Assembly (NCBI GenBank): GCA_918797485.1
Contig: CAKKNE010000005.1
Location: forward strand, 4,836,001-4,900,000
Length of the DNA: 64,000 bases
Reading direction: 5' to 3'
Source of the DNA: Pelagomonas calceolata
Lineage: Eukaryota
In this document: positions 2,930 to 63,875 of the stretch, piece after piece
Position numbering within the stretch: the stretch's first letter is position 1
How the letters are laid out: every line of letters starts with the position of its first letter
Notes under the pieces: model-generated
What the model was told of the DNA's origin: nothing
The model's database searches: none
Seen by the model: the letters and a program-made list of their open reading frames with translations, nothing else
Made by a program: the position numbers and the translations under genes

Positions 2930-4089
2930 CTAGAGCTCGTCGGCCAAGCGCGCCTGGTCGACGAGGCCCTTGGGGACACCCATCACCGAGATGAGCGACG
3001 CCATCCGCTCGTCGCTGAGCAGCGCCTGGAACTTCGGGTCCCGCAGGATCTCCGCGTACTTCACGTCGAGGCCGTCGCGCCGCGCTAATGCCTTCGCCGC
3101 GAATGGTTTTTGAAAGGCGAGGACTGCGTCCTTGTCCTCGAGGTCGCCCCGGAAATGCGTCTGCGCCCCGCCCGGGTGCTCGTCGTCAACCTCGGTCATG
3201 TCCGAGATCAAGTAGGAAGGAAATTCGGTCACCTTGAGGAACGCGAGCGTGTCCCTGAGCGCCGCGCCGTACTCGTCGTCGGCGTCGGCGGGCGCCTGTG
3301 TGGAAATCAAATTTCAGGCGCCCCACGCGACGTTGTCCTTGTGACTGCGTCTGCTCAATGGTGTGGAGATTCTACGCCATCGACGCGACGTTGTCCCCGT
3401 AACTGCGGCAGCACGATGGCGTATAACCTAACTCACTGGTTGATTTCCACACAGTCGGGTGCCTTGAACATGACGATGTGCATGACCTTGCCCCGATGCC
3501 GCTGCGCCGCGTGGTAGAAGGCGTCGCGGACCGGCGGCGCCGGCGGGTCCGCCGGGTCGACGGCCAGGATGGCGTGCATTTTCAGCGGGCCGCCGAAGAT
3601 CATGTCCACATAATCAGGGAGATAGGGCACAACTAACGGCAGCATGGTATCCTCGACCCACCGACTCAGCTTCTTTCGCCCTTTTTTTGATGTTGTAAAC
3701 GTAGTGACGTCGACCAACTCGTCGTAGGGCTTGAGGAGCAGCACGGCATTGCCGTGCGCCTTCGCCTCGGCGGCGGCGTACAACCGTAATCGCTCCGCCT
3801 GGTCGACGGCCCGGCCCACGAGGTCCGGCCCGTCTACCAAGTAGAACTCGGCCGGATATTTGAAGGATGCCGCCACGGCTCGAAATGCGGCCGCCGCCTT
3901 GCCCTCATCGGGCACCAGGGCGAGGACGCGGACGCCCACGCGTCCGCCGAACAACTCGTCGACTGCTTTCACACTCCTGAGCGTTCTGCAGCGGTCCGCC
4001 TGCTCGCCGTCGACAGCCGCGGCGTGCTGCAGCTGGCATAGCAGGGCAATCAGTGTGAGCGCGAGGGATCGCATGGATGGTGCGCGCAT
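2930..4089 (-). CDS. ER-resident PDI-like protein with non-catalytic thioredoxin folds; exons 4089-3463, 3295-2930
   Basis: Signal peptide, b/b'-type segment (WVEDTMLPLVVPY..IFGGP), C-terminal ADEL. Removing the GC-AG intron 3462-3296 gives VMFK|APADADD in frame. Confidence 0.75.
3296..3454. mobile_element. Introner element (short subfamily); intron 3462-3296 on minus strand, GC donor
   Basis: TIRs ctgtgtggaaatcaa / ttgatttccacacag; TSD gcgggcgc vs tcgggtgc (6/8). Confidence 0.9.
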
Positions 4090-4177
4090 TGCTGGCAAAA
4101 GGTACAGAGCGATCTGTGCGGAGCCTGGTTGACCTATGCTGTGATATAGCCCGCTCGCGCGGTTCACGGCAGAATTA

Positions 4178-4202
4178 GCTAGCGGCATGTAAGACCACTA
4201 GC
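4178..4202. promoter_or_regulatory. Bipartite CTAG motif in a divergent promoter
   Basis: gctagcggcatgtaagaccactagc. Confidence 0.55.
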
Positions 4203-4780: not shown

Positions 4781-4795
4781 GACACTGTAGTAGTA

Positions 4796-6973: not shown

Positions 6974-6985
6974 CAATTATCACAC

Positions 6986-16511: not shown

Positions 16512-17792
16512 ATGGCCAAGCGCGGCACCCTGGACGACAACACGGTCTGGAAGGTCGAAGAAATAAAAAAAATCCCGAATTCCGACGAGGCGCGCAAGTT
16601 GTTGCTCCGCGTCAAGGAGCACGCCGACAACGTGCTCAAGGCGCGCGGCTGGAAGGTCAAGCGGCTGATCGAGATCTGCTGCTGCGAGCGCAAGAACATG
16701 GGCACGAACCTGGGCGTCGGCGGCTGGTGCCGCGGCGACGGGCCCGGCGCCGCGCACACGATCGCGCTGCGCCTGCGCCGCCCGCGGTCGCACGACTTCG
16801 TGAGCTTCGAGCACTGTTTGAAAGTTATGTGGCACGAGATGGCGCACATCGTGCACGGCAACCACTCGGCGGCCTTCTACCAGGAGATGGACGACATCGC
16901 GCGCCACTACGAGCTCATCAAGAGCAAGGGCCAGCTCGTCGGGCTCGACGGCTTCCCGATCGGCGGCGGCCGCAACGCGGACCCGCAGCGGCACAACCCG
17001 TCGCGCGCGGAGGGGCGCGCCGCGGGGCTCAAGGCCGCCGAGGCCCGGGCGAAGAAGCAGCGCGTCATGGGCGGCGGGCGCCTCGGCGGCGGCGCCGCGC
17101 ACCGGAAGCTGTCGCCCCGGGAGGCCGCGGCCCGCGCGGCGGAGCGGCGCGCCCAGGACGCGCGGAACGGCCTCGGCGACGCGGAGTTGGAGGTCGCAGC
17201 GGGCCGCGGCGAGAAGCGCAAGTCCGGGCCGGGCCTCGTCTGGGACGGGACCTTCCGCGCGGTCTGCCCCGTGTGCGGGCCGGTCTGCACGGACAAGGTG
17301 GAGCACGCGGAGGTCATCTCCGACTCGGACGACGACGACCTCGCGGGGCCGGTGGACTACAGCCAGGAGAGCCAGGAGGACGAAAAGCCGCCGGCTCCGG
17401 CGAAGCCGGCGGCGCGGCCGAGGCCGGCGCCGACCGCACAAGCTCGGCGGCCGCCGCCTCCGCCCGCGGACCGGCGACCGGCCAAGCGCAAGGCGCCGCC
17501 GTCGCCCATCGACCTCACCGCGGAGGACTCGGACGGCGGGAGCGGGCCTCCGGCGGTGGCTTGGACGTGCGCGCGCTGCACCCTTGTCAACTCCGGCGGC
17601 GACGTCTGCAACGCGTGCGCGGCGCCGCGGAACGCGGGAGCGCAAGAGGAGGCCGACGCCGCGCTCGCGAGACGGCTCCAGGAGGGCCAGGCGCCGCGGC
17701 CAGCGCCGGACTCGCGGCCGGAGCCTGCGCCGTTCGACCCGTGCAAGCCGTCGCTGAACGGTTCAAGCATGGCTCGCCCGGCAAAGAAGTGA
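16512..17792 (+). CDS. WSS1: WLM-domain metalloprotease (Wss1-like) with SIM and RanBP2 zinc finger
   Basis: IALRLR, HEMAHIVHGNHSAAFY (HExxH), GGGRLGG, PIDLT, WTCARCTLVN..CNAC. Confidence 0.88.
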   Translation: MAKRGTLDDNTVWKVEEIKKIPNSDEARKLLLRVKEHADNVLKARGWKVKRLIEICCCERKNMGTNLGVGGWCRGDGPGAAHTIALRLRRPRSHDFVSFEHCLKVMWHEMAHIVHGNHSAAFYQEMDDIARHYELIKSKGQLVGLDGFPIGGGRNADPQRHNPSRAEGRAAGLKAAEARAKKQRVMGGGRLGGGAAHRKLSPREAAARAAERRAQDARNGLGDAELEVAAGRGEKRKSGPGLVWDGTFRAVCPVCGPVCTDKVEHAEVISDSDDDDLAGPVDYSQESQEDEKPPAPAKPAARPRPAPTAQARRPPPPPADRRPAKRKAPPSPIDLTAEDSDGGSGPPAVAWTCARCTLVNSGGDVCNACAAPRNAGAQEEADAALARRLQEGQAPRPAPDSRPEPAPFDPCKPSLNGSSMARPAKK

Positions 17793-17815
17793 CTGTCATG
17801 TGTGACTAACTTATG

Positions 17816-18736
17816 TTATGCAATTGTTGGGAATCGTGGCACCAAGAGCCGTGCGAGCCCGCCGAGGAACGCTCGCAGCGGCGCTAGCACCATCGTCAGG
17901 ACGCCCCCGGCGCGCGCCGCGGCGGGCAAGTCCGCTTTCACTGGGATCACGAGTTCCGTCGCGTTGGAGAGTATGACTTCGACGGGCGGTGGCGCGGTCT
18001 CGACAGCGCGCCGCTGGTCGTAAATCGCAAAATACAAATTCGCCGCGAGGAGCGCGGTCAGGATTCCGAGCAGGGCGTCGCGCGCGGTGAGGTCGCCGTT
18101 TGATGTGGCGACCTTCGCGGGCGACGGCGTGGCGACGATTGGTTGATCGACGACCGCCAACGGCGCGGCGACGGCGGCCGGCGCGGCTGGGGGCGCAACG
18201 ACGGCAGGCGACGACGAGGTGACGGCCGGTGGCGCTTCGACCTCCGGCTGTACAGCGACAGGTGACGCCGCTGCTATCGCAGCAGGCGCGGCGGCACTCC
18301 GGACTATACGGTCGCGCACCTCGGTGCGGAGCTTCTCCGAGCGCGCGGCCTCCGCCGTCCTGGCGGCCGCCTCCCGGCGGATGGCCTCGTCGGCGTCTCC
18401 GTCGAACCAGCTCGCCCAGAAGTCACCGTCCTCGGCGGCCGCGGGCTGCTCGTCGACCCAGGCCTCGTCCGGCTCGGTCCAGGTGCTGACGCCTCGCTCA
18501 TGATTGTACCAATAATGATACTTGTAGCGCGGGTCGAAGCAGCGCGTCCACGGCGGGTACTCGCTCGACGCGGCGGGGCTGGGGGACGGCAGCGGAATGC
18601 TGGGGCTGGGCGCTGCTTGCGTCCGAGCAACCGGCTTCTTTCGCGTGGCCGCGCGCTCAGCACTATTGCTCAGGTCCGCGAAGGCGACGCGCCGCCGCGG
18701 CATCGGACTGGCTTCCGCAAGGCGGTCGAGCTCCAT
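17816..18736 (-). CDS. WW-domain membrane protein
   Basis: PPWTRCFDPRYKYHYWYNHERGVSTWTEP; hydrophobic helix near the C-terminus. Confidence 0.75.
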   Translation of the reverse strand: MELDRLAEASPMPRRRVAFADLSNSAERAATRKKPVARTQAAPSPSIPLPSPSPAASSEYPPWTRCFDPRYKYHYWYNHERGVSTWTEPDEAWVDEQPAAAEDGDFWASWFDGDADEAIRREAAARTAEAARSEKLRTEVRDRIVRSAAAPAAIAAASPVAVQPEVEAPPAVTSSSPAVVAPPAAPAAVAAPLAVVDQPIVATPSPAKVATSNGDLTARDALLGILTALLAANLYFAIYDQRRAVETAPPPVEVILSNATELVIPVKADLPAAARAGGVLTMVLAPLRAFLGGLARLLVPRFPTIA

Positions 18737-18794
18737 GCTCGTGCCGGGGCAGCCTGCCAAAAAGCTTGCCAAAAACCAACCGGCAGCCAGGATC

Positions 18795-18818
18795 CCTAGT
18801 GTCTTACAAGTCGCTAGC
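18795..18818. promoter_or_regulatory. Bipartite CTAG motif upstream of the WW gene
   Basis: cctagtgtcttacaagtcgctagc. Confidence 0.55.
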
Positions 18819-18820
18819 GA

Positions 18821-18921
18821 GATTGCCTGATTGGCCTAGGCACCGTAACATCGACTCGATTGCCTGATTGGCTTCGCCCACTTGTCCTAGCACCGTAACA
18901 ATTATCGATTGCCTAATTAGC
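18821..18921 (+). repeat. Two truncated copies of the CTAGCACCGTAACA repeat, each bracketed by a 15-bp direct repeat
   Basis: gattgcctgattggc at 18821 and 18858, gattgcctaattagc at 18907. Confidence 0.75.
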
Positions 18922-19039
18922 TAACGCTGAGAGAGTACTCTCATTGAGCGGCCCGTTGACGGCGCATGTTCCAATCATATGCATTCTAGAATACGAATAC
19001 GAATTAGACGGTACGGGCCAGGACTCCCACGTTGCGAAT

Positions 19040-21612
19040 TTAAGCGTTCAAAAGCCCGTTCCACCACGCCTTGACTGCCGTGATGAAGACGAAGCCGAGG
19101 ACGCAGAGCATGAATAGGAGGAAGAGATAGGGGTCTGGCAGGCATACGCCGAGCCACCTCATGCGTCCCCGGAGGGGCGCCGCGGTGAGGGCCACGAGCG
19201 TCCCGGCGACCATCGCGAGCATCCCGCCGCCGTAGCTCTGGACGCAGCCCGACGCGCACGGGGTCGCGACGGTCGCCCACGGGCCGTCATCCCACCTCGA
19301 CGTGGCGATCTCCAGCAGCGCCCCGTACGCGCCGGCCCCGGAGACCGCGGCCGCGCCCGAGACGAAGAGGGCGCATCCCACGAGCGCCGTCTGCCGGCGC
19401 CACGAGGCCGTGCAGGACCCGACGATCCCGCCGAGGCGCCGCTTCGAAACGATGTAGTCGAGCTCGTAGGCCGCCGCGAACGCCACGAGGCCCGCGAAGA
19501 ACGCCATCGCGCGCGCCTGCACGGAGGCGTCGTAGATGCGCTGGCACGACGCGGCCTGAGCGGCATCATCGCCGCAGTGCGCCTTGATCTCGTACGTGGT
19601 CGAGGCCGCGTCGCTCGCATCCCTGCAAGGCTTGTCGAGGGTGCCGCAGTCCACGTCGAATTCGATGTAGCCCCGCCAGAGGTCGAGGCTCACCGTCATG
19701 ACCTGTGTGGAAATCAAAATTCACGGCGCGTCCGTGCCAAATCTTCGCGTCGACCTCCACGCCATCGACGCGACAACTGCTCGATGGCGTGGCGATGCCG
19801 GTTCCGCACCGCTCGACGGAACTAGCGCGGCCACGTCACCCGACACACTGGTTGATTTCCACACAGGTCATGACCGCGGGCACCCAAGAGCCGAAAAGGG
19901 CGCCAGCAGTGGACTCACCGAGGTCGTAGTCGGTCTTGGACCAGTGGCCTCGCGTGCAGAGCGCGAGGATCTGGAGGACGCCGGCGATGGTCCCCATGTA
20001 AATCGCGAGCATCAGGCGCTTCCCGGCGGCCTCCGAGATGCCGTCGCTCGGGGGTGCTTCCGTCGGCGCCGCGGGGCTCTCCTCCACGTCGGGTTCGCCG
20101 ACGAGGGCGCGCCGCCACGCCCGCAGCGCGCCGAGTTCCACCCTCAGATCCGCCGGGCCGCGCTCGACGAGGCGCTCGCGAATCTTGCGCGCGACGTCCG
20201 CGCGCTCCAGCGCGAACTCTTCGCCGACGCGCAGCGCCTGGAGCTCCGCGAGCAGCGCCCCGTCCCGGCCTCCGAATCGGGCGGTCCCCTCGAGCGCGGC
20301 CTCGACGCGGAGAAGGAGCGCCCCCTCGGCCTCGCGCAGCTGCCGGAGGTCGCCCTTGACCTGTGTGGAAATCAAATTTCGGCTCGATGGCGTCGTCGGC
20401 TCGACGGCGTGATGACCTAACTCACTGGTTGATTCCCGCACAGCCCTTGACGTAGGTCCCGTCCAGGAAGGGTCCCGCCGCGTAGGTCCCGTCGGCCTCC
20501 TCGCGCGCCTTCGCCTCGGCGGCCTCGCGCGCCCGCCGCGCCTCGGCCTCGACCTCGCGGGCCCGCGCCTCGGCCTCGGCCTTCTTGGCCGCGAGCGCTT
20601 TTTTCTCCGCCGCGTGTTCCGCAGCGAGCGCGCGCTGCTTCTCCGCGAGCTCGCGCCGCTCCCGCGCGTGCTCCTCCTCGAGCGCGCGCTGCTCCGCCTC
20701 GAGCCGGGCCTTCTCTTCGGCCGCGCGGCGCCGGGCGGCCTCCTCGCGCTGCAACCATTCGAGACCCTCGCACAAGCCGTCGCCGTTCGTCGCGCAGCAC
20801 GCCTGGACGTGCCACGGGCGGCCGAAGAATTTGCGACCGTTCAGGCCCAGCTTCTCCTCCAGCTCCCGGGGGTACAGCGCCGTCGGCACGTCCTGCTTGT
20901 TCGCGAAGACCAAGAGGACGGCCTCCCGCAGCCGCTTGTCCTTGCAAAGGCGGTGCAGCTCGTCCCGCGCCTGCTGCAGCCGGTCCGCGTCGGTGGAATC
21001 GACGACGAAGACGAGGCCCCGCACGTCTCCGACGTTGTTGTGCCGGAGGAGATCGTTAAAGGGATGGCCGAGGTCGCACGCCGTGAAGTTCCAGCCCGTG
21101 AGCTCGACCACCTCGAGAACGTGATGCGTGACCACCTCGCCCAGCTTGAGCTGGTGGAGGGCCGTCGTCTTGCCGGCGCCGGCGAGGCCGACCAAGAGGA
21201 CGGTCTTCGTCTTCGCCTCGGCGGCCCGGGCCTCCCGGGCCGCCTCGGCCTCGCGCGCGCGGCGCTGGGCGGCCTTCTGGAGCTCCTGGGCGCGCCGCGC
21301 ATCCTCGCGCGCGCGAGTCGCGGCGGCGAGCTCCTCGGCCGCGCGGCGCTCGGACGCTTCTTTCTCGCGCGCCTCCGCTGCCTCCTCCTCCGCGAGCTGC
21401 GCCTGCATCTTCGCGATGCGTTGCCTGAGCGCAGCCACTTCGTCCTCCTCGCCGACCGGTTCAGCCACGACCGCCTCGGGACCGGTTCCGCGCCAGGACG
21501 CCAGCCTCGTGAGCAGCGAAGGGCGCGCCGCGTCGGGGTAGTAGTCCGTGACGCCATGCCGCGTGGTATACACGTAGCCGGGGCGGCTGCCCGTGTACGC
21601 GCTACCGCCCAT
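19040..21612 (-). CDS. Coiled-coil protein with degenerate Arf GTPase domain and C-terminal multi-pass membrane domain; exons 21612-20452, 20360-19875, 19702-19040
   Basis: GLAGAGKTT, LVFVVDSTDADR, FANKQD, QACCATNGDGLCEGLEWL; removing two introners joins three ORFs in frame. Confidence 0.8.
19703..19866. mobile_element. Introner element; intron 19874-19703 (minus, GT)
   Basis: TIRs present; perfect palindromic TSD gtcatgac. Confidence 0.95.
20361..20443. mobile_element. Introner element (short); intron 20451-20361 (minus, GT)
   Basis: TIRs present; perfect TSD cccttgac. Confidence 0.95.
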
Positions 21613-21972
21613 TTGTCACTCGTGTGGGGCAGCTTGTTGGGCAGCACGGGGGTCCTGTGGACGCACGCAAGTCCGCCGGACGCGAGGTGCAGGACGGCAG
21701 CAATGACCACCGATAGACGCAGCTGGACCTTGCCGGAACTCGGCTCGCGCGCCGGGCAATCTAGACTCTGCAGACTTTGGATGGAAGGAAGTTGAAGGAC
21801 CCCGCACGGATTTAAGCGAAGGACTCGCGCGAGCACGTCGGAGAGACCCCTCGAGGCACGCTTCGCGGCCGCCGCGCGAGCTGCGCGGCGCCTCGCTTCC
21901 AAGGATCCAGAAAAGCAGGGCAGCCTGTCGCGAACGCGTGCGCCGGCCCCGTGGACGCCAAAGCCGGTAACC

Positions 21973-23171
21973 ATGGCGATGCCTGTCGCGCACGTGATTC
22001 CCCCTTCGCTGCGGGCCTTCGGCATCGACGAGGTCCAGCCCCAGCAAAAGCTAGACCCCAACAAATATGAGGTGCCGCGCGGCGTCGACCGTCGGGACGC
22101 CTTCGACGCGACGGCGGCTGCTCGTCGAGCGTCGGGACGCCTTCGACGCGACGGCGGCTGCTCGTTGACGGTCGGGATGCCTTCGATGCGACGGCTCGTC
22201 GACCGTCGGGACGCCTTCGACGCGACGGCGGCTGCCCAATCGACCCGCGCAGGTGCTCGGCCAGGACATGCAGGTGCTGCGTATCCACTTGAATCGGGGC
22301 GAAAAGGCCCTGGCGGAGCCCGGGGCCATGGTCTACATGTCGGAGAACGTCGAGGCCGGCTGCGACTCGGCCAAGTGGTGGCCGCGCTGCATGGGCTGCG
22401 AGCCCTGCTGCTTCGCGACGTTCGAGGCGAAAGGCGACGGCGCCTACGTCGGGTTGACGCCGAACCGGCCGGCGAAGGTCCTGCCCCTCGTGTTGGGGGG
22501 GCGGCGCTTCCTCGGCAAGAAGGGCATGTACTTCGCGTCGACGGGGCACGTGGACGTGGACTTCAACATGGATCTGAACCCCGTGACCTGCTGCTGCGGC
22601 GGCCAAGGCATGATCCGCCAGGTCCTGAAGGGCGACGGCATCGCCTTCATCGGCGCCATGGGCGTGCTCACGCACAAGGTGCTGGCGCCGGGCGAGAAGC
22701 TGATCGTGGACACCTGCGTGGAAACCAAAATTTACGGCGCGTTCTCTCGACCTCCACGCCATCGGCGCGACGCCTGCCCGATGGCGTGGCGATGCCGGTT
22801 CTTCAACGCTCGACCGAGCCAGGACGGCCGCGTCATCGCCGAGAAATGACTTAGTGAAGAGTTGTCGGGTGCACCCGACGCACTTGTTGATTTCCACACA
22901 GGTGGACACGAACAGCGTCGTCGCCTGGGAAGAGACCGTGGAGTACGGCGTCAAGAAGAACTCGGGCGGCCTGTGCATGTGCTGCTGCGGCGGCGAAGGC
23001 TTCTTCTCGACGCAGCTCACGGGGCCCGGCGAGGTCTACGTCCAGAGCTATAGCCACGCGAAGTTCAAGCAGTACGCGGTCGACTGGTACCTGGGCGCGC
23101 ACCCCATGACGCGCCAGGGCGGCGCCGCGTTCGGGGGCGCGGCGCCCGCGGCGGAGATGGACCGGTCCTAA
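21973..23171 (+). CDS. AIM24/DUF124 family protein, Cys-rich; exons 21973-22071, 22253-22705, 22902-23171
   Basis: GQDMQVL..AEPGAMVYMS, VDTNSVVAW, CCGGEGFF..LTGPGEVYVQS. Confidence 0.88.
22072..22252 (+). other. GT-AG intron with internal tandem repeats of acgccttcgacgcgacggcggctgc
   Basis: Restores frame KYE|VLGQDMQ; imperfect terminal inverted repeat; GTG repeated at both junctions. Confidence 0.8.
22714..22901. mobile_element. Introner element (long subfamily); intron 22706-22901 (plus, GT)
   Basis: TIRs present; perfect TSD gtggacac. Confidence 0.95.
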
Positions 23172-23187
23172 AATTCATCCAATTAAA

Positions 23188-24267: not shown

Positions 24268-24542
24268 CCTTCACGCGGCGCGCGGCGCAGAGGCTGCCGA
24301 CTGCCGATCTGCCGCGGCGAGTGGCGGCGCGGGACGACGAGCGAGGTCGCGTGTGCGGTGGCGCGCGCGTCGTGGTCGGCGCGTGGCGGAAGTGCCTCCT
24401 TTGGCGCCGCGGCACGCGAGGCTCGAGGCTGCCCTTCCCCAAGATCTGCGAGGCAAAACAGAAAACGCGGTCACGTGCCGGCGGATTGCACGGCGCGGTC
24501 GCGTCCGCGCTGCCCCGGGAAGCCCACGAGGAGCCCTCGGCA

Positions 24543-24694: not shown

Positions 24695-24701
24695 CGATAA
24701 C

Positions 24702-42161: not shown

Positions 42162-43636
42162 ATGCTCACCTACGCCACAAGGTCAGCCCTGCTCCTGAGG
42201 CCGCTCATTCAGAGCACCAGAGCAACGGCTCGAGCTCTCTCAGCCACCCCTTACCTGGACCGCACGCAGCAGGGCCCGGTGTGGCCCACATTAACACAAA
42301 AACCGGACGAGAAAACCCTGGAGAAGGACGGCAAGGGCGTCTGCGCCTGGCTCGGCTCCGCGAGCTCGAAACCGGCGGACCTTGACGCACAGCTCGCCGC
42401 GCGCGTCTACGACCTCTACCTGCCCGTCTACTACTGGTGCAAAGACGTCGTGGAGAAGAACCCCACCAAACCGACGGTCATCTTCATGAGCGCGCCGCAA
42501 GGCTGCGGGAAGACGACGATCTGCGACGCTTTGGTCGAGCGCTTCGCGGCCGACGGCAAGCAGTGCGCCGCTCTGTCGTACGACGACTTCTACCTGACGC
42601 ACGCGGAACAGAACGAGGTCGCGAAGACCCACGAGCACAACCGGCTCCTGGAGTTAAGGGGCAACGGCGGCACGCACGACCTCCAGCTCTTCGACGACGT
42701 GCTGACCTGTGTGGAAATCAAATTTCTCGCGGCGCGTCTCCACGCCATCGACGCGACGCCTGCTCGATAGCGTGGCGATGTCGGTTCTTCACCGCTCGAC
42801 GGAGCTAGCACGGCCGCGCCATCACCGAGAAATGACTTAGTGAAGAATTGTCGGGTGCACCCGACGCACTGGTTGATTCGTGCTGAATCGTCGCGTCGAC
42901 CTCCACGCCATCGACGCGACGCCTGCTCGATGGCGTGGCGGTTTGGGTCTCTCACCGCTCGACCGAGCCAGCACGGCAGCCTCATCGCCGAGAAACGACT
43001 TCGTGAAGAATTGTCGGGTGCACCCGATACACTGGTTGATTTCCACACAGGTCCTGACCGCCCTGAAACGCGACGGCAAGGCGAAGGCGCCGCGCTACGA
43101 CAAGACGGCCTTCGGCGGCTTCGGCGACCGCGCCGGGCTCGTGGACGTCGAGGGCGCGGACGTCGTGCTGGTTGAGGGTTGGATGGCGGGGTTCAAGCCC
43201 GTAGCGTCCCGCGTCGACGCGTCGACGGCGCCGAGGGGGTCACGGTCGCATCGACGGAGCCGAGGGGGTCACGGTCGCATCGACGCAGGTCGGCGCCGCC
43301 GCCGCGACGGCAGTCGACGTGGACCTTGGCGCCGTCGACGCGTGCCTGGGCGCCTACGCGCGGTGGGACGCGCACGCCGACGCGTGGCTCGTCGTCGCGA
43401 TCGATTCGCCGGCGGACACGGTCTACGGCTGGCGCCGCGAGGCCGAGCGCCGCGCGGGCGGCGGCCTGAGCGACGAGCAGGTCCGGGACTTCGTCGGGCG
43501 CTTCCTGCCTTCTTATGAAGCGTATTGCCCGGCATTATACGCGGCGGCGGCGGGCAGTGGCGTCGACGCGAAGCCCACGCTGCGGCTCGACGTCGACACG
43601 ACGCGGTCCCCCGTCGGCGCGGTGCGCGGCGGCTAG
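42162..43636 (+). CDS. GLYK: D-glycerate 3-kinase; exons 42162-42698, 43051-43200, 43289-43636
   Basis: YLPVYYW, SAPQGCGKTT, SYDDFYLT, LLELRGNGGTHD, PRYDK, VEGWMAGF, VYGWRREAE, FVGRFLPSY. Confidence 0.92.
42707..43050. mobile_element. Dimeric introner (internal body duplicated); intron 42699-43050 (plus, GT)
   Basis: TIRs present; TSD gtgctgac/gtcctgac; two copies of the ctccacgccatcgacgcg...cactggttgatt body. Confidence 0.93.
43201..43288 (+). other. GT-AG intron with a 30-bp tandem repeat
   Basis: Frame GFKP|VGAAA; ccgagggggtcacggtcgcatcgacg x2. Confidence 0.8.
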
Positions 43637-43977: not shown

Positions 43978-46900
43978 CTAGTACTTGAACGCCACCGCCA
44001 TGCGATGGAACTTTTCCAGCACGACGGGCGCGATGGCGTTGAGCGACTCGTGGATGAGCTCGAGGAAGAAGTGCTCCGCGTCCTCGTCCGACAGGTCGAG
44101 CCGGAAGCGGTCCTGGAATTTTTGGGAAGCGTCCTCGCTCAGGTGCTCGACGCCCGCGTCCTTCATCAGCGACATTAAATTCAGTAACAGGGGCGCGTGG
44201 CGTCGCAAGCAACAATACGCCTGGCAGCACTTGGTTCGGAACTCCGTCCAATTGGCTCCGTCCGGGTAGCCCATGGCCTCGGCCATCTCTCGAGTTAACC
44301 GGAACGGCGGCGGGTACGGCTTTGGATCTCTACCGAGGATGAAGCCGAAGTCGATGTGGAAGAGCTGGCCGTTCTTGCGGACCATGATGTTGTCTAAATG
44401 GCGATCGCCGACGCCGAGGAGATATGTAATCACGCAGTACCCGGCGCACGACTTCGTGAACGCGTCGACGGCGTCCGCTCTGACGCCGTTCGGCGCCGCG
44501 GCGTCGGGGTTATTCGATCTCAGATAATTCAGGATCGACGACTGATTCTCGGCGAGAATGTCGGATATGGCCTTCGAGTCCTCTACAAATTGCACGATGC
44601 CGCTCGAGGCCCCCGTAGCTAGAGCCCCGTAGCAAGTCAGCTTCATGTCCAGGTTCACGCGCTTAAGCAATAAATCCATAAGAAGTACAAACCTGTGCGG
44701 AAATCAAACATTCGGGCGCCCCGCATGTTGAAGGTTTCTCGAATAAGCGAACACTGGTTGATTTCCACACAGGCACTGACTGCAGCACGACCTGGTCCTG
44801 CCGCAAATCGTCGCCGTGTTTAACAATGACTCGGTACGGTTTTGTAGTTGTGGGCTCGTCCGGTGCCGTCGGCGGCTTCGCGGGTTTGTCACCGAAGGCC
44901 GCGTCTCGTAACGCGTCGAAGAAGCCGCCGTCCTGCGTGAACGATATGAGGCGCGTCGAAGGCGTGGAGCATCACACATTGAAGCCACGAAGGTACACCG
45001 AGGCGCGCGGTCGACGGCGCCCGCTTCCTTGGCGGCGGCGGTGGAGGCATTTGCGGCGGCGCCGCAGTCGTCTGCGGCCTTCGAACCGTGAATCCAACGA
45101 GCGAAGGCGTCAAGGCGGATTTAAACATGGTCGGCGACGAAGTCGGCGCGTGCAGACCGCTTATCATAACATCTGGATCGAGTGGGCACGGGACGCCGCG
45201 CTCGACAACTAAGGATGGCGTCCGCAGCGCTCCAAGCGCCTCCCTCAACTTCTTCTGCTTCTGAGGTGCTCTCCCCTTCTCGTCTTTGGCGCGCGCCTGC
45301 GCCTCCAAGACGCCGACGATGAGTTCCTCCTGGGCTCGCAGCGTCGCATACACGTCTGGCGCTTTCTCGGCGAGGTCCTCGGCGAATCTACCTCTAAACA
45401 CGCGATACGTAGCACAGGACTGCTCGTCGGTCGCGTCCTCCGCCTGCGTGAGAATTGAGGCGTCGCGTCGATGGCGTAGAGGGGGGGGGAAACGCGACAT
45501 ATCGAAGCTGTTTGACGCCGCATGCGCACGCCTACTTTCAGATACCACCACACGAAATTTGCGACCGCGATTGATTGCGCAGCTCTCTCCGAAAGAAAGC
45601 TAGCGAGAGGCGAACGACCCTTCTCGTCCTTCTCGTCGTAGCGCAGCGCTTGCACGAGCTGTAGCAAGTAAGTAACTAGCTCGATGTCAGACGCCTGGCG
45701 AAGAGCGTCGACGGCGAAGGCTCGCACGACGCGTCGCTGGTAGGCTTGATCTGGTCCCAATAGTTTAATGGCATCCGCCACATCTATCCGAGTCCACTGC
45801 TTGAGTAAAGCAGGTACCTGTGCTACTTCCGTCGCGTCGCGCCAATCAACGGCTAACAAGAACTTCGGGAGGGCTTTCTTCTCCCCCGTAAGCGCATGCC
45901 GGAACTTCCACAGCAGCTCGAGGTCCGACGACGCGAGCGAATCGCCGGGCGCCGACATAACGCGCTTTAGCGCTCTTCCTTCCTCAGCGTCGGGCCGCAG
46001 CTCTGTGTCGACCAAGGCGCGCGTCGCGTCTCTGGCTAGCGCACCTGCGCGGGAATTGCGGTGAGTGACGCGCCGCGTCGATGGCGTGACGCTGGAAACG
46101 CGCGATACTTCTCCTCCGCGGGCGTTCCGCGAGCGGCCTGGGCTTCGTCATCATCGAAGTCGTAGACGATCACGTCATTGTTCGTCTCGAGTCCCGCCTG
46201 CTTCAGCGCCTCACTGAGTTTCGAGGCATCGTCGCCGGTATCAGCGGCGTCCGCGACCAGTCGGGCCAGCGCAGCATCCACATCGGGCGCCACCGGCGGC
46301 GGGCCGTAGGGCCGCTCCTCCCAGAGCACAGGGTGGTCGAACTTGGGCAATTCGACACAAAGGAAGGCTCTATCAGCCATCGCGCGCTCGTCGTCGTGGC
46401 AGTGCGGCGCCCGCAGCCACTTCTCCCGATCATTTAAGGCGGCCCGCTGCTCGCCGATGCGCTTCAACGCGAGGTCGTCGAGCCAGTCCTCCCGCTCGTC
46501 CAGGATCGACCCGTGGTCGCCGCCGAAGCCCTCGCGAAAGACCTCGGCCCGAAACAAGTGGTCGTGCGGCGCATATCTTTTATACCCGCCCTCGGCCTCG
46601 GCGTCGCCGCGCAGCTCCCCGTGGAAGGCGCCCAGCCGGCCGCCGACCTCGGCGCTCGCGTGCGCCGCCTCGAGCTCGGCCTCGGCGGCCTCGGCGTCGT
46701 CGTGGAGCGCCAGCTTCTGCAGCCCGCCGCGGAAGACGCCCCGGGCGTCGAAGACGGGCAGCGACGCCGCCGCGACGATGGCGCCGGCGCCGTCGCGCAC
46801 CGTGAACACGAGCAGGCTGTCGCGGCTCAGGTCCCGCACGCGCACGGGCAGGCCCAGGGCCTCGCCGTAGAAGAACGCGACGCGCTGCTCGTCGTACGAC

Positions 46901-49151: not shown

Positions 49152-51341
49152 CTATGATCCAACGACCGCCCAGAGCGCGTCCTGGCCCAGGGCGACTTTT
49201 CCGATCGTCTTTTGGCGCGCCTTGCCGCGCTTCTGCTTCTCGAGGAGCTTCTTCTTGCGGTCCTTCCCTAGGACAGCTTTGCTCCCGCCAGTCGTCAACA
49301 CGTCCTTCCGGAGCGGAGCGATGCGTGCTCTCGCCACGACGGCGCCGTTGACGCGGGCCTGGATGATGCACTCGAAGAGCTGGCGCGGGACGTGCCGTCG
49401 CAGCTTCTCGACGGCGCGGCGGCCCCGGTCTCGGGCATCGGCCGACCGCGCGGCGAAGGCCAGCGCCTCCACTGGCTCGCCATTCAGGAGCACGTCGACC
49501 TTCGCGACGTCCGCGGCCTCGTACCGGGGCAATTCGTCGACGGCTAAAGTAGCGTGCCCTCGGGACGCATGCGCCAGGCGCTCGCCCAGTCCGTCGACGA
49601 CGGAGGCCCACGGTGCGGCGCAGGCGATGATCGAGCGGCCGTCGAGTGTCGACTCGATGCCTGTCTGCTGCGCGCGCGCCGTCTCGAGGTGCTCTAGGCC
49701 TGGGTGGAATCAAATTTCAGGTGCCCACGCCAAACCTAACTCACTGGTTGATTTCCACACAGCCCGAGGCAGGCGCCGACGTGTTCGCGCGGCGTCACTA
49801 CTTCGATGTCGACAACCGGTTCCAGTATATCTGAGACCTCGCGGCTTAGTTGCGCGGCGTCCGGCCAGTCGTCGAGGGCTTCGAGCGTCGTTACGTTCCC
49901 ATCCTTCCACCTCACCTTGTAAGGCACTGTCGGGCTCGTGAACAAGACCTCGGCGCCGAATTCGTCACGCAGTCGCTGCCTGAAGACATCCATATGAAGC
50001 AACCCGAGGAAGCCGAGCCGCAGCCCCGCACCCAACGTGGGTCGTGCTTTGGCCTCGCGGCCTGTGCATAAATCAAATTGTCGCGACGTGTCTCCGCCAC
50101 TGCTGAATCGTGGCCTCCACGCCATCGACGCGACGCACTGCTTGATTTCGACACAGCTCATGGCGGACGGTCACGCTCGCATCGTTCAGCGCAAGGCGGT
50201 CGACAGCGCGAGACATCTCATCAAAAAGACCACCATCGGGCGGAAAGACGGACGCGAAAAGGCCAGGCTGCGTCGCCGGCGGCAGCGGATCCACGGGCTC
50301 GAGACGGTCGCGTTCTGTCGCAAGACATAACGTGTCGCCGACGCGCGCCTGGCGCACATCACGCAAGCCCGCCACGAGGTATCCGACGCATCCCGCGTTC
50401 AGGAACCCCGTCCGGTGGTGCGCTGGCGTAAGCAGCCCGAGTTCCTGGACGGTATGCTCCTTGCCGTCTCCTCCTAGGAAGGCAATGCGGTCGCCCTCCC
50501 GCAAAGAACCGTCGACGCACTGGATCACGGCGACGACGCCCCGCGTGATGTCGTAGCGGCCGTCCAGGACGCGGCACCGCGTCGGCCGAGCTCTTCTGTC
50601 GTCCGCGGGTTGTTTAAAAGCGTCGATGATCGCGGGCATCACCCCATCTACGCCGTCACCGCTCTTCGCCGAGACGTAGAGCACGTCCTCCGGATCTTTG
50701 GTAAATTCTAAAGCTGCGAGCTCGAGCGCGACTTCCACCGCATCGGCCGTCGGGAGGTCTATCTTCGACGCGGCGCAAACGAGCGGCACGCCAGCAGCGC
50801 GCGCGGCCGCGGCGACTTTCAAGGTCTGAGCTTCGATACCTTGCGAAGCATCCACAAGTAAGAGCGCGCCGTCGCAGGCGCCGAGGCTCCGCCGCACTTC
50901 GTGGGCGAAGTCCGCGTGGCCCGGCGTATCCACGAGATTCACAAGGTACTCACCAACAAGCATCGACGCCGTCACCGCCTTGACCGTAATGCCCCGCTCG
51001 CGCTCGACGTCCAGCGTGTCTAAAGCCGACTGCCCGACCGCGTCCGTCGAGGCGATGTTGCCGTACATTTCGAGGAGGCGCTGCGCTAATGAGGACTTCC
51101 CGTGGTCAACGTGGGCGACGATGCTGAAGGTGACCGTTTTCTCGACTGGCAGTGCTGCCAGCCGTTGCTCGTCGAGCGCTGTGATCGATGACGCGCAGCG
51201 CTGCGCCAGCGCACGCTTTATGCGCCTGCACTGCGACCGATCGCACTGCGCTGAGACATGCGACGCATTGCGCTGCAGTGCAGCTTGCAAGCGTCTGCGC
51301 GGAGCACCAGGCGCAGCCAAGCGCCGAAGGAATTGCCGCAT
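49152..51341 (-). CDS. GUF1: Mitochondrial translation factor GUF1/LepA (EF4); exons 51341-50165, 50061-49771, 49699-49152
   Basis: IVAHVDHGKSSL, ERERGITVK, DTPGHADF, GFLGLLHMDVF, PRQLF, RKDV, KKLLEKQKRGK. Confidence 0.93.
49700..49762. mobile_element. Introner element (short); intron 49770-49700 (minus, GC donor)
   Basis: TIRs present; TSD ctctaggc/cccgaggc. Confidence 0.88.
50062..50156. mobile_element. Introner element; intron 50164-50062 (minus, GC donor)
   Basis: TIRs present; TSD ctcgcggc/ctcatggc. Confidence 0.9.
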
Positions 51342-51437
51342 CGATGGTTTTGGGGATCAATGCATTTCTTCACGTCCACGAATGATGCACCAACAGCTCG
51401 CAAAGCTGCGATTGGCGGCGCTTGCAAAATGCGATTA

Positions 51438-51579: not shown

Positions 51580-53100
51580 TTAGTAGACCTCGACGCGCCA
51601 CTGGCCCTTCTTCTTCAGGTCGGCGACGAAGTCATCGTACGTCAGGCCCTTCTTCCGGCAGACCTCCTTGAGCATGTCCTGGATGCCGGGCATCATGCCC
51701 TTGAGGCCGCAGAAGTACATGACGGCGCCGTTCTGGAGGCGCTCAAAGATCTCGTCGGCGTACTCCTCGACCTGTGTGGTCAAATGTCGGTCGAGCGCTG
51801 CGCCGTCGTCGCGTCGAGCGCCGCGCCGTCGACGCGTCCCCCGCCGCAAATCAAATCGAAGCGACTGTGCGACGCCGCAACGGACCTTGTCCTGAATGTA
51901 CATCTTGCCGCCCTTCTTGTTCTTCTCCTCGCGCGAGAGCGCGTAGTCGACGCGGAAATTGTCGGGAAACTTGCTCTTGGCCGCCTGCCACCTGTGTGGA
52001 AATCAACCAGTGAGTTAGGTGGCGGGGCGCCCGGAATTTGATTTCCACACAGCCTGCCACTCCTCATCATATAAGAGGGCGTCGCTGTTGGCGACGCCGA
52101 GGAAGAGCCACGCCAGGCCCTTGTAGGCCTCGCCGGCGGGCGTCGTCTCCGTGAAGAGGCGGCGGATGAAGCCGCGGTACGGGGCGATGCCAGTGCCCGT
52201 CGCGACCATGATGTAGTCCGTGTCCGCCTTCTCCTCGGGCATCAGCCTGCGTGGAAATCAACCAGTGAGCTAGAGATACAGACGCAGCGCCTGGTATTTG
52301 ATCTCCACACAGGCGCTCACATCACTTTGCCAGTCGGGCCGGTCATCTTAACTTGTTCGCCCGCCGTGGCGTCGCACAGGAAGTTCGAGCAGACGCCCTT
52401 CTTCGCCGGGTCCTCCTTGCCCATGTCCGGGTCCCAGTACGTCGCGCGGCGCACGCACAGCGACGACGTCTTGCCGGCCATGTTGTCGCCGTAGCGCGAC
52501 GACGCGATGGAGTAGAGGCGCACCGTGTGCGGCTTGCCGTTCTTCGGGTTCGTGCCCGGCGGGATGACGCCGTAGGACTGGCCCTCCCAGTAGGGCATGT
52601 TGCCCTTGTGGTCGAAGATGATGTGGCACGTCTCGCCGGTCGCCTCGGGGCCGACGATGCGCTTGCAGCTGACGACCTTGGCCGTGTAGGGGCTCTTGTT
52701 CTTGAAGGTGTTCACGGGGACCGTGGACTGGTCCCAGTAGGGCGAGGCCTCGAGGAAGTCCTGCTTCTTGCCGGCCGGCGACTCCGTCAAAATGGTGCCC
52801 TTGTTGCCGCCGAAGAGGCCCGAGAGCAGGCCCATGCGCGGCGTCGCGCGGAGCGCGTCGGCGCCGCCGAGCGCGAGCCTGTGTTATCGATGCGTTTTAT
52901 ACGGCCGTGGCTGCGTTTTCTACCGCGGTCGCGTCGGCAGCGCTTCTGGCGCCTTCGGCGGATCCGGAAACGCGGCGGCGGGCGGTTTCGGCAGCGATGC
53001 TGCCTTGCGTCGCGCCAGAGCAGCTGCTGGTCTGCGCGCCTTCCTCTCGCAACGCGTGTTTTGTGTCTTAATGCCGCCGCACGGCTAGCAGGTCGCGCAT
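51580..53100 (-). CDS. petH: Plastid ferredoxin-NADP+ reductase; exons 53100-53081 (tentative), 52878-52321, 52246-52061, 51991-51886, 51771-51580
   Basis: [48 protein letters not shown]-terminal VEVY. The first exon gives the signal [15 protein letters not shown] through a GC-AG intron. Confidence 0.93.
51772..51885 (-). other. GT-AG intron, decayed introner-like
   Basis: QDK|VEE; GTC at both junctions; one end ctgtgtggtcaa; internal cgccgtcgacgcg. Confidence 0.8.
51992..52052. mobile_element. Minimal 61-bp introner; intron 52060-51992 (minus, GT)
   Basis: Perfect 15-bp TIRs; perfect TSD cctgccac. Confidence 0.95.
52247..52312. mobile_element. Short introner; intron 52320-52247 (minus, GTGAG donor)
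   Basis: TIRs present; TSD diverged; restores GKVMLMP. Confidence 0.88.
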
Positions 53101-59091: not shown

Positions 59092-61412
59092 TTACCCTGT
59101 CGCTCCGCACCATGCGTCGGTACAGAGTGCTTTCCGGTAGCCGCAGTCGTCCTGCTTGCCGGGCCCGCCGACGCCGTCGCTGCTCGCGTAGCCGGGAAAG
59201 CACTCGCACTGCCCGGTCGATCGATCGCACAATCCGCGGCCCGAACATTCGAGCGACTCTGTTGTGCCCGTCACCGAGACCAGGGAGGCGTCCGACGCGG
59301 CCGCGGCGCCGTCAACGAAGAATACCACTGAGCCGCCGCCGATTTCGTCGCCGAAGTTCGAGTCGAACAATTGGCTCGTGTCCGCGCTGAGGTCTGGGAG
59401 ATCACCGTGTTCCGTGACGAAGGCGACCGTCACCGCGTTCACGGAGAGGCCTATGTCGGTGCACGTGGAGTTGCCCGACGAGAAGAGAACTATGACGTCG
59501 CCGATATTCGTCAGCCACTCGAGGGCTTCCTCTAATTCTTGCCTCGAGGCGTTGTACGCGATCGGCAAAGTCGTCTTCTGTCTAAAGCTAAGCGTAAGCG
59601 TGCCAGCTGTCCCGGCGCACTCGAAGAGCTGTACCTCGTTAACCTGGCCGTAGGTATTGGGGTCGTCGCCGTACGTACATTCCCGCTCGCTACAATCGTA
59701 ACCAGTCCAGCCCTCGTCGCAGATGCAGCCGTATATTCTATCCGCATCCCACGTGTTGCCGTTGTTGGGGTCAGAACCGTACAGGCGGGGGTCCGAGTCG
59801 CCGTTCGAAGTGGCAAGTAGCGCCATCTCGCGCATCGTCGCGCACCGCCCGTGCTTGTTGCACTCGTTCGTCAGCCCGCCGGGGCACTGAATAAATTCGC
59901 ACGCGTTGCCCGTGAAGGGTACCGCGCAGGCGCACTCGCCCTTCGTCGTGTCGCACGTGCCCGCGCCACTGCATACCTCGAGGACGTCGTGGCCGACGTT
60001 GTCTTCGGACCTACGTGGAAATCAAAATTCGGGCGCCCGACGCCATCGACGCGATGTTGTCTCCGTAGCTGCGTCTGCTCGATGGCGTGAGGTGGCCACG
60101 CCATCGACGCGATGTTGTCTCTGTAGCTGCGTCTGCTCGATGGCGTGGGGTGTCCAGGCCATCGACGCGTCGGCTCGATGGCGAGGAGGCTCGAATGACC
60201 TAACCCGCTGGTTGATTTCCACACAGCTTCAGACGGATAACTGAACCACGCGAGACCCTTCGGACACGTCCGCAAGGAACAGTCGGCGCCCGTGAAGCCT
60301 TTCGCGCAAGAGCATCGATAGGTACTCAGGTCACAAATGCCCGCCCCGGAGCACGCGGTCATCCCCGGGCATTCGTCGATCGCCGTGGCCGCGAAGCCGC
60401 AGTCGCCGCGGTTTCCCTCGTTGCCGTAGCCGTCCGAGCTCTTGAACGTGTCGCCGTTCGTGTCCAGGCACAGGCACGTCGCGTCGAACGGGTTGCAGAT
60501 GCCCCGGTTCGAGCACTCCTCGTCCTCCTTCGTGCCCTTCTTCGAGACGAAGTCGGCGCCCAAGCTGTCCGTAAACACCGTCTGGCCGTCGGCCGAGACC
60601 TGGATCGTGCCCGCGAGGTCGTCGTCCAGCGGCACCAACGGAGGCAGGCTCCCGAAGTCCTGCGTGAATTCGATGCGCACGACGTTGACCGAGTCCGTGG
60701 TGCACGCCGTCCCGTTGTCGATCGAGTAGGTGACGTCGACCTCGGTGATCGCGGCGGACTGCTCGAGCGCGGCCTTGAGCTGGTGCTCCTTCATGCCCGT
60801 CCGGATGTCTCCGGAGGCGTGGCCCGCCATCAACAGAACGAACGTCCCGCCCGTCGCCATGCACTTGAAGTACTGGACCTCGTTCTTCTGGTCCGGCGTC
60901 ATGGGGTCGTCGCCGGAAGGACAGCGTCGGAACGCGCAGTTGAACACGGCGTCGTAGGGCGAGTCGCAGACGCAGCCGTACATCTTGTCCGCGTCCCAGG
61001 GCGTCTCGTAGACGAACTGCTGCGAGTCCTCGTTGTACTGCGACGACGCGAAGTTCCGCATCGACACGCACTTGCCCTTGAAGCCGCATTCGCGGTCGCA
61101 GGCCAGGTGCTGGCACGCCTTGCCCGTGAAGCCCTCGGCGCACTCGCACTCGCCCGTCCCCTCGTCGCAGAGGCCGCGATTCGAGCACTCGGCCCGCGCA
61201 TGCGCGACCTCGTCGCTCGACGCGACGTCGGCCCACGCGTAGTGCGTCGGGCACTTCCGGTAGCCGCAGTCGGCGCCCGTCCAGCCCGAAAAACAGGTGC
61301 AGCGGCCGAAGGGGTCGCATTTGCCCTTGAGATTGCAGTTGTTGGGGCACTGCGCGTCGACCGCCGCCGCGATAAAGATCACGAGGAGGCGCTGCCTCTG
61401 GTGCCCAGGCAT
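59092..61412 (-). CDS. Secreted EGF-like/tenascin-type repeat protein; exons 61412-60235, 60010-59092
   Basis: Signal peptide; many CSNRGLCD..GECEC..GFTG.AC repeats; CPSGDDP.T..NEVQ units. Confidence 0.9.
60011..60226. mobile_element. Introner with internal tandem duplication; intron 60234-60011 (minus, GT)
   Basis: TIRs present (acceptor TAG); TSD cttcggac/cttcagac; cgccatcgacgcgatgttgtctc.gtagctgcgtctgctcgatggcgtg x2. Confidence 0.93.
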
Positions 61413-62660
61413 GGCGCCCTTTAAGCGCTGGACCTCGTCCGTTGCAATGAACAGCGAAGAGTGGGCGTCCTTTCTCTCTTGCCCAAGGAGAGCGGGCCTG
61501 GCTTGCGCCTGCGTACAGACCGCCGCCCCTCCAGCGGACCGGCGCTCCTATGAGGGGGGTAGCTAGGTAGGAATATGCTGTACGTTGGTTTTGATGTCCA
61601 GCAGCTGGCTTGGCGGTGCTGCCGGCCATGCCCGCAGCGGGGCTTTGGCGTGGGGGCTCCTTATGATGTCGTCGGGTCCCATGCAAAGCGGGCTGCCATA
61701 TAATTGCGATGCTGCTTTGATCTCCTAATTAGCTGCCGACGGCGCCTAATTCACGCTAAAAACCGAGCATTTGAAAAATACGCTATCGGCGCGAGGGAGA
61801 GCCGCTTGGAGCCCTGGGCGCCCGAGACACGGACTCCTAGGAAAATTTAGATAAATCTCGGCGACCCCCAATTTTTACACCCCCTTCGCTTCGCCTTCCA
61901 GGGCTCCTCAGCGTCAATTATCGTTCACAGGGACGGATAGTACCCTCGGCTGCCCTCGCGTAACTTGGATTTGGTCGTTTCGGTGCTTTTAGTCGACTGC
62001 GAGACGGTCCCGCCCGAGACACATAATACGACACTATCTCCAGATTCTCGAGCGCTCGAACGCGGCCGCAGTGTCCGGGGGTACCCCACGCATGTGCCCG
62101 AGCCGTTTCCGTCTTTCGTGCATGCCGTCTAGCGATGGGGTGTAGGTCGCACCGCGGGGCGGTACGCCGAAAGTAATCTCAGCGACAGAATTGGTGCAGA
62201 TAGCTGCCCCTGCGCGTTCCACTGGCTTCAGTACCTTCTCGGGCAGCCTCGGCTCAGCAAAAGTTTTTCGCGGGGAGCCTCGCGCGGCCCGCTAAGGTGC
62301 GTCGAAGGGCCGAACTTCAGGCCAGCTTTTCTCGGCCGCTACAGGCGCACACTTGTCACGGCCAACGCGGCTGGGTAGCCCTGGCTATGGGCTTTCCAGC
62401 GCACCAGCCCGTGACAAGTGTGCACCCGATGGGGCTGAGCACTGGACGTGTTTTGCCCCCAGTGGCGCCAGCTCTAGACTCAGTGGCGCTCCTCGAAGCC
62501 TGGACGCTGCACCAAAAGCTGCCAGCCGCAGCAACTCTCGCGCCGGGACGCCTCCGAGCCCTATCTGACTGCTCGTGAGGAAAAGAACAGCCCACATTTC
62601 GTGCGGGTACACGCAGCCCGAAGCTTTTGCGCGCATCCAAAGGGCTGCCCAGAGAGCAGG

Positions 62661-63875
62661 ATGCCCGCCGAAGAGGCGGCGACGAGCGACAAAAAGCCGA
62701 AGCAGAATGGCTGGCGGGCGCTCCTTCGCGCGCGGCGGCGCCGCGAGAAGCGGGAGAAGCGGCAGGAGATGATGATCAACCACAAGCCGAGCCTCTTCCG
62801 CTGGCCCACGCGGGCTCTTCCAGCGGTGGCCGGCTGCCGCACGGAGCCCCACAAGCCGTGTTGCGTCAGCTGCGACCAGAACGTCGGCTCGCATTTGGTC
62901 CTCGACCTTGGTGCTCGGCTGCTGGCGACGAGATCCGCATTCCAAGCGATCGAGGTCTTCGACACGGAGGCTTTCGGCCACGTGATGACCATCGACGGCG
63001 ATCTGCAGCTTACGGAGCTCGACGAGTGCCACTACCACGAGATGATGGTCCACGTGCCGCTCGCCTCGAGAAAACCCGGCGCCGGCGCGCCGCGCGTGTT
63101 GATCATCGGCGGCGGCGACGGCGGCTGCGCGCGCGAGGCGCTGCGCTGGCCCGGCGCGACCGTCACGCTCGTCGACATCGACGCCGCCGTCCTCGACGCC
63201 GCGCGGCGCTTCTTCCCGGCGTGCGCCGCGGGCCTCGACGACCCGCGCACGGAAGTTCACGTTTCAGACGGCGCCGCGTTCGCGGCGGCGGCGGCTGCGC
63301 GCGGCGACACCTACGACCTCGTCATCTGCGACTCGACGGATTGTAGCGCAGCAGAACGAGCGTCCGGGACGCTCTACACGGACGCCTTTTTCGTCTCAGT
63401 CGCGGCGCTCGTAGCGCCGGGCGGCTTCTTCTGTAGAAATTATACAAGTCTGCTCCTGTGCACATGGAAATCAAAATTTCACGGCGCGTTCGCTGAATCG
63501 TCGCGTCGACCTCCACGCCATCGACGCGACGCCTGCTCGACGGCGTGTGCACCCGACGCACTGTTTGATTTCCACACAGGTCTCCTCTGGAATACTGATG
63601 AAGCCGCAGCGACGCTGCCCCGCTACGCCGCGCATTTCGCGCACGCTAGCCCTTTTGTATGGAATCAACCGACATACTCGTCGGGCTCCTACTCGGCCCT
63701 CCTCTGCGGCGCCGCCGCGCCGTGCGCGACGCGTGACCTCGCCGCCATCGCCGCGACCCTCGGCGAGACGGACTACTGGACGCCCGCGGTTCACCGCGCA
63801 GCATTCGCTCTCCCCGCATTCGTGGCGCGCCGCATGAGTCCCTCAGCGCCCCCCGCGCCGCCCAACGAGTCCTAG
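62661..63875 (+). CDS. speE: Spermidine synthase (aminopropyltransferase); exons 62661-63447, 63580-63875
   Basis: SAFQAIEV..FGHVMTIDGDLQLTELDE..YHEMMVH, VLIIGGGDGG, VDID, YDLVICDSTD, PTY, HRAAFALP. Confidence 0.9.
   Translation: MPAEEAATSDKKPKQNGWRALLRARRRREKREKRQEMMINHKPSLFRWPTRALPAVAGCRTEPHKPCCVSCDQNVGSHLVLDLGARLLATRSAFQAIEVFDTEAFGHVMTIDGDLQLTELDECHYHEMMVHVPLASRKPGAGAPRVLIIGGGDGGCAREALRWPGATVTLVDIDAAVLDAARRFFPACAAGLDDPRTEVHVSDGAAFAAAAAARGDTYDLVICDSTDCSAAERASGTLYTDAFFVSVAALVAPGGFFCRNYTSLLLCTWKSKFHGAFAESSRRPPRHRRDACSTACAPDALFDFHTGLLWNTDEAAATLPRYAAHFAHASPFVWNQPTYSSGSYSALLCGAAAPCATRDLAAIAATLGETDYWTPAVHRAAFALPAFVARRMSPSAPPAPPNES
63456..63579. mobile_element. Introner; intron 63448-63579 (plus, GT), 132 nt and stop-free
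   Basis: TIRs present (4-nt insertion in the left TIR); TSD gtctgctc/gtctcctc. Confidence 0.92.

Follow-up and report, generated by a model that had tools for sequence, protein, structure and literature searches.

The window analysed here, a 64-kb stretch of Pelagomonas calceolata DNA (contig CAKKNE010000005.1), contains 16 short elements of 61-344 bp, spread over positions 3296-63579 and lodged in genes as different as those for GUF1/LepA, a Vps34 kinase, AIM24-domain proteins, an RSN1/CSC1-type channel and spermidine synthase. Each element is bounded by terminal inverted repeats (TIRs) of about 15 bp, by whose matches its two ends were paired, and is flanked by a target-site duplication (TSD) of 8 bp. 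Very probably, these elements are one non-autonomous TIR DNA transposon (introner) family in the coding exons of P. calceolata, and each copy is likely spliced out along with one of its two 8-bp TSD copies.

Anatomy of the element family

When up to two mismatches are allowed, the 15-nt TIR has 26 matches in the window, where 30 simulated sequences from an order-2 Markov model average 0.0. Alignment of the 16 copies gives a single family with two distinct ends and an interior that varies by deletions or duplications. Full-length copies are 200-203 bp long and give predicted introns of 208-211 bp; among the seven longer copies, pairwise identity is 72-95%. In 15 copies the TIRs are self-complementary at 11-15 of 15 positions. 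The element at 63456 reaches only 8/15 in an ungapped comparison, because its left TIR holds a 4-nt insertion. With respect to the host gene, seven elements lie one way and nine the opposite way.

The TSD is perfect in seven of the 16 copies (19703, 20361, 22714, 24992, 25305, 26505 and 51992), and in the other nine it matches at 3-7 of 8 positions. The initial annotation of this DNA had described 16 elements of this size and TIR length in either orientation, with perfect TSDs at seven named sites; the TIR scan and alignment recover all 16, and exactly those seven duplications are perfect. It had also held that both ends of the element finish in (C/T)AG. This is so in most copies, while at 24992 and 27787 the YAG has been lost on the unused end. 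The termini start with CTG in most copies, and with CAG in 24992. A 17th, decayed member (51772-51885), missing from the initial list, was found with a profile of the family.

Predicted splice sites, reading frames and orthologous sites

On the gene strand, the dinucleotide exactly 8 nt outside the upstream TIR is GT in 12 copies and GC in four. The background frequency of GY is 0.184, and its occurrence at -8 in 16/16 copies has a p of about 2e-12 (2e-8 when either strand may count). The 3' terminus of the element on the gene strand is AG in every copy (15 CAG, one TAG). Donor and acceptor thus stand where the initial annotation had placed them, in all 16 cases. At 25305, an alternative in-frame GT donor 3 nt further upstream is possible. 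The length of the predicted intron, which comprises the upstream TSD copy and the element, is not a multiple of three in 14 of the 16, and retention would shift the frame there.

In-silico removal of the element and the upstream TSD copy produces an exact join at 11 of the 16 sites, as judged by comparison with homologues, Pfam profiles or empty sites, and this backs the earlier proposal that splicing restores the coding sequence; the other five sites only keep an open frame. In GUF1/LepA, the exon is 100% identical to P0001, a protein with the NCBI name Pelagomonas calceolata (Aureococcus GUF1, P0053, is 69% identical), and the gene minus both predicted introns equals P0001 over 671/671 residues. 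These identities make the host P. calceolata or an almost identical alga and speak against Aureococcus. Of 120 homologues, 21 were aligned, and none of them opens a gap at either join. P0001 is supporting evidence and does not amount to a junction read, because it is a gene model from a mixed annotation; the published annotation of P. calceolata is described as a combination of transcript alignments, protein alignments and ab initio prediction (PMC9481584).

Similar precision is seen elsewhere. The 44693 join lies inside a conserved Vps34 kinase motif and is ungapped against 9/9 homologues. At 22714, position 157 of the Pfam AIM24 profile falls on the last upstream residue and position 159 on downstream residue 2, and in the second AIM24 gene the profile count closes across both introns (24992 and 25305). 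At 51992, position 44 of Pfam NAD_binding_1 is followed by position 46 across the split codon. In the channel gene, the 27787 join is ungapped in five close homologues among the seven listed, and the 26505 join shows no insertion relative to the closest homologues listed, several distant ones aligning poorly. For spermidine synthase (63456), five of 12 homologues have the spliced form, five read into an element at the same site, and two (P0128 and P0131) are uninformative. The intron predicted there (63448-63579) is 132 nt long and stop-free, so its retention would add 44 residues to the protein; one relative, P0121, likewise reads in frame across a shorter element located there.

Orthologous sites in wild relatives provide a view of the genes with and without individual elements. 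Scanning metagenomes with P0001 yielded 10 loci, of which L010 and L011 miss the GUF1 junctions and were excluded, leaving counts of eight; L003 and L004 do not differ over 3400 nt and were counted as one lineage. The 50062 site is empty in 7/8 of the relatives' GUF1 loci, and the 49700 site is empty in 4/8 and filled in 4/8. The 51992 and 52247 sites are empty in L003/L004, whose DNA is about 80-89% identical to the window. At all four empty orthologous sites, a single 8-mer is present that matches the exonic TSD copy of the window. For 50062, L002 and L006 agree perfectly with the exonic copy, the intronic copy having drifted; for 52247 the match extends to 7/8 positions in L003/L004. Introns elsewhere in L002 and L006, and a run of several syntenic genes across L003/L004, identify the empty sites as genomic DNA. 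The comparison of presence and absence across metagenomes that the initial annotation had suggested finds lineage-restricted presence, with a single 8-mer at each of the four empty sites.

Members of this TIR family also occupy other positions of these genes in L006 (twice), L008 and L011. Within the 2-kb coding sequence (CDS) of GUF1, there are seven intron positions among nine sequences, none of them common to all. All seven start with GY, four have the element TIR, and six show a TSD match of at least 5/8. The decayed 17th member is absent from L003/L004 and present in L011. One further locus, L009, is a mosaic when compared with positions 49152-51356 of the window: its middle GUF1 exon is 99.7% identical, and the outer exons are 86% and 93% identical. 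Recombination between divergent lineages could account for this, as could a chimeric contig.

Table 1. Elements of the family and the introns predicted from them (window coordinates; TSD, matching positions of the 8-bp duplication).
Element	Strand	Predicted intron	Splice sites	Phase	Host gene	TSD	Remarks
3296-3454	-	3296-3462	GC-AG	0	Thioredoxin-like	6/8	Basis: open frame and codon-position GC only
19703-19866	-	19703-19874	GT-AG	0	Arf-domain	8/8	Basis: RNA strand on flanks, open frame
20361-20443	-	20361-20451	GT-AG	0	Same Arf-domain gene as 19703	8/8	Basis: RNA strand on flanks, open frame
22714-22901	+	22706-22901	GT-AG	0	AIM24	8/8
24992-25191	+	24984-25191	GT-AG	0	Second AIM24 gene	8/8
25305-25507	+	25297-25507	GC-AG	0	Same AIM24 gene as 24992	8/8	Reverse orientation
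26505-26707	-	26505-26715	GT-AG	0	RSN1/CSC1-type channel	8/8
27787-27879	-	27787-27887	GT-AG	0	Same channel gene as 26505	4/8	Old element
42707-43050	+	42699-43050	GT-AG	0	P-loop kinase	7/8	Longest, internally duplicated
44693-44772	-	44693-44780	GT-AG	2	Vps34 kinase domain	5/8
49700-49762	-	49700-49770	GC-AG	1	GUF1/LepA	6/8
50062-50156	-	50062-50164	GC-AG	1	GUF1/LepA	6/8
51992-52052	-	51992-52060	GT-AG	2	FAD/NAD-binding oxidoreductase	8/8
52247-52312	-	52247-52320	GT-AG	2	Same oxidoreductase gene as 51992	3/8	Old element
60011-60226	-	60011-60234	GT-AG	2	EGF-repeat	7/8
63456-63579	+	63448-63579	GT-AG	1	Spermidine synthase	7/8
51772-51885	-	114 nt, in-frame, stop-free	GT-AG			3/8	Decayed 17th member, one recognisable TIR

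The predicted introns are in phase 0 in 9/16 cases, and the five exons that lie between adjacent element-introns measure 105, 186, 291, 486 and 1071 nt, all multiples of 3; these numbers are too small for a test of phase bias or nucleosome spacing. The AIM24 genes are three adjacent genes (21796-25987; plus, minus, plus), the middle one without an element. In the elements at 3296, 20361, 49700, 51992 and 60011, an end variant bears CTAAC on one strand, about 20 nt inside the element, and four of these five also have GTGAGT on the opposite strand; we take CTAAC to resemble a branch point and GTGAGT a donor. Two further TIR-like matches, at 48727 and 58079, were rejected, as neither has a partner end in the stretches examined and the latter falls inside an open aldehyde dehydrogenase reading frame. 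An unrelated repeat of short tandem units with high DNA depth (bin 18703-19103) is located at about 18800-18930, and has no match to the element family.

Proposed mechanism and alternatives

In the mechanism that we infer for transposition and splicing at these sites, a transposase encoded elsewhere, probably of the hAT type, would insert the element and thereby duplicate 8 bp of target. As the TIR starts with CTG, both strands end in CAG, and the element offers a 3' splice site whichever way it lies. A target 8-mer whose gene-strand sequence opens with GT or GC would give a 5' splice site in its upstream copy; its downstream copy would remain in the exon, and the mRNA would be unchanged. Coding insertions without GY at the start of the target would presumably be purged, which may be aided by a mild preference for palindromic targets of the form GY....RC. 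In 7/16 exonic copies the target finishes in RC (p about 0.017), an excess that hints at such a preference besides selection. After insertion, the intronic TSD copy and the interior of the element would be expected to decay. The same assignment of donor to the upstream TSD and of acceptor to the terminal AG of the TIR, irrespective of orientation, was part of the initial annotation, and it agrees with the exact joins, the empty sites and the strand of the RNA.

Reads from one raw RNA run and three public DNA runs were mapped to positions 17500-29500, a region that holds seven elements. The strand of the first RNA mates on the flanks agrees with the predicted gene strand for all seven, weakly so at 24992. 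DNA contigs cross from unique flank into element in each run, for five elements in X3, five in X13 and two in X14 among the pieces listed, and the elements are therefore not assembly artefacts. DNA depth over the element bins is far above that of the flanks, which fits many copies and gives no copy number.

Several observations weigh against the proposed mechanism. No junction-spanning RNA read is present among the 15 joints listed of 593, all 15 being repeat-derived. Poly(A) reads contain element sequence fused to flanks from outside the window, with loose ends of 640-2,300 reads, from which it follows that some copies elsewhere persist in RNA. At 3296, 19703, 20361, 42707 and 60011, the prediction is accompanied by an open frame and plausible protein on both sides only; at 60011, EGF repeats share the frame on either side of the element. 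No transposase domain is recognised by Pfam in 31 exon pieces or in 44 long open reading frames (ORFs), a chosen subset of 178 ORFs, so that the initial impression of a window without visible transposase holds for the 75 pieces scanned. Finally, empty sites by themselves fit both gain and precise loss. As regards the persistent RNA, 1,100-2,300 poly(A) reads join the element ends at 22714-22910 and 26505-26708 to flanks outside the window; at least one highly expressed gene outside the window must therefore retain an element in some of its transcripts.

The traits that point to hAT are the 8-bp TSD and the short TIR. Duplications of 8 bp are also known from P and Merlin elements, and hAT termini typically begin with (C/T)A. 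A search of Rfam gave 0 matches. Viral contigs gave 0 matches to a 21-nt end motif and one to an 18-nt motif; the latter is taken as chance, as it lies in an unrelated phage stretch without element sequence after the motif.

In principle, the element could also provide both of its splice sites. The donor of some copies would then lie within the TIR (GT at +5 of CTGTGTGG), and the TSD plus 4 nt, 12 nt in total, would stay in the mRNA. The TIR does have internal GT dinucleotides, a 12-nt addition preserves the frame, and a donor of this kind is known from an Aureococcus sp. introner (legend to Fig. 2F, 10.1101/2022.06.06.494994); intronless orthologues are unable to separate it from a donor at -8. 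However, GY at -8 in 16/16 copies would then have no explanation, and the annotated P0001 has no four-residue insertion at either GUF1 junction. At 50062, moreover, it is the upstream TSD copy that has drifted from the empty-site 8-mer, with the downstream copy intact. A donor within the TIR, although the leading alternative, is, in sum, quite improbable.

It is highly improbable that these are ordinary old introns that were later colonised by a miniature inverted-repeat transposable element (MITE), or that were lost in relatives, and were not made by insertion. The 49700 copy is indeed common to divergent lineages, and precise intron loss would likewise leave an empty site, yet all 16 predicted introns run exactly from TSD start to TIR end and contain no other sequence, the TSD pairs differ from site to site, and none of the seven intron positions in the GUF1 CDS is universal among the nine sequences. 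A last alternative, that the elements are unspliced, gene-breaking MITE insertions or artefacts of assembly, could appeal to the lack of a junction read among the listed joints and to the abundance of element sequence in poly(A) reads. It is barely credible in view of conserved host genes (Vps34, GUF1) with intact frames on either side of the elements, and of insertions confirmed by the DNA contigs of three runs; it, too, leaves GY at -8 unexplained. Insertion of an introner that uses its upstream TSD copy as donor accounts for this dinucleotide.

With regard to age, the perfect TSDs had initially been read as a sign of recent activity. They do mark the younger insertions in a relative sense; ongoing activity is unsupported, given the divergence of the seven longer copies. 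The 49700 copy is shared with lineages that are about 85-93% identical in nearby exons, and hence predates the split from those lineages. Of the listed contigs from the three DNA runs (17500-29500), none shows an empty within-species allele.

Older introns may also be connected with the family. An internal 14-nt core motif of the element occurs 25 times in the window, compared with 0.23 expected, and 12 of the occurrences lie outside the 16 elements. Those at 44952-44965, 45464-45477 and 46074-46087 (minus) and at 22097-22224 (plus, three copies) sit in what look like TIR-less introns of Vps34 and AIM24, where a CGCAG acceptor-like site follows about 10-25 nt downstream. Such occurrences could be remnants of old family members; alternatively, the motif may help splicing. 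From its position upstream of acceptors in TIR-less introns, most introns of P. calceolata may be decayed copies of the family, far above the 340-956 catalogued. It is a tentative idea, and a somewhat doubtful one, that the family reshuffles intron positions among wild Pelagomonas lineages, perhaps still moves, and underlies many older introns. If it were true, ocean metagenomes of this very abundant alga would constitute a population-scale record of the birth and ageing of introns.

Relation to known introners

The origin of new spliceosomal introns was a long-standing question, to which TIR/TSD introners are the accepted answer for many marine protists, and the window is a clean textbook case of these. 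The initial annotation had rightly regarded the mechanism as known from Aureococcus; it is, in addition, already in print for P. calceolata itself. The additions made here are modest: the 8-bp TSD, the empty sites in wild relatives, and a hint that this family also gave rise to older introns. The 8-bp TSD is absent from the published table rows and text consulted, and may already stand in figures or bioRxiv supplements.

Introners are listed in the genomes of both Pelagomonas and Aureococcus by Gozashti et al. (2022). For P. calceolata, Guerin et al. (2022; PMC9481584) count 956 putative introner elements, defined from transcriptome-aligned introns, with GT and GC donors, an AG acceptor in all cases, a conserved TIR, and a peak of intron length near 210 bp. 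The elements of the window share the donors, the acceptor and the TIR, and their full-length introns are of 208-211 bp; TSDs and the co-option mechanism, both described here, are not mentioned in the portions of that text consulted. Gozashti et al. (2025; PMC12130899) distinguish 11 introner families in P. calceolata. Their fam2 is classified as TIR DNA and hAT, a label that comes from the published table, and is given as 202 bp long with a 13-bp TIR, 340 copies, GT (281) and GC (42) donors, and the splice-site mode 'co-opt 5' carry 3''. Host, full-length size (200-203 bp here), TIR, splice-site logic and the use of both GT and GC agree with our elements. The fam2 table gives no TSD length, which here is 8 bp. 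Since no published fam2 consensus was found (11-nt TIR strings have 0 matches in the supplementary files consulted), the family is equated with fam2 by description only. The short copies of 61-95 bp may belong to other listed P. calceolata families, or to none.

Beyond this species, the introners of Aureococcus anophagefferens (Huff, Zilberman and Roy 2016, as cited in 10.1101/2020.10.14.339549 and PMC10228655) carry one splice site, take the other from the TSD, and occur in either orientation. The scheme is the same as in the window, the likeness being one of description across different genera; GC donors make up 4/16 here and are rarer, at 2-3% in the sources consulted, in the two large families of A. 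anophagefferens. In the dinoflagellate Polarella glacialis, classes 6, 8 and 10 of introner-like elements (10.1101/2020.10.14.339549) are reported to have an 8-nt TSD that starts with GH, a donor derived from the TSD, and insertions in both orientations. Likened by description, they differ from the P. calceolata elements in their host and in the additional use of GA donors.

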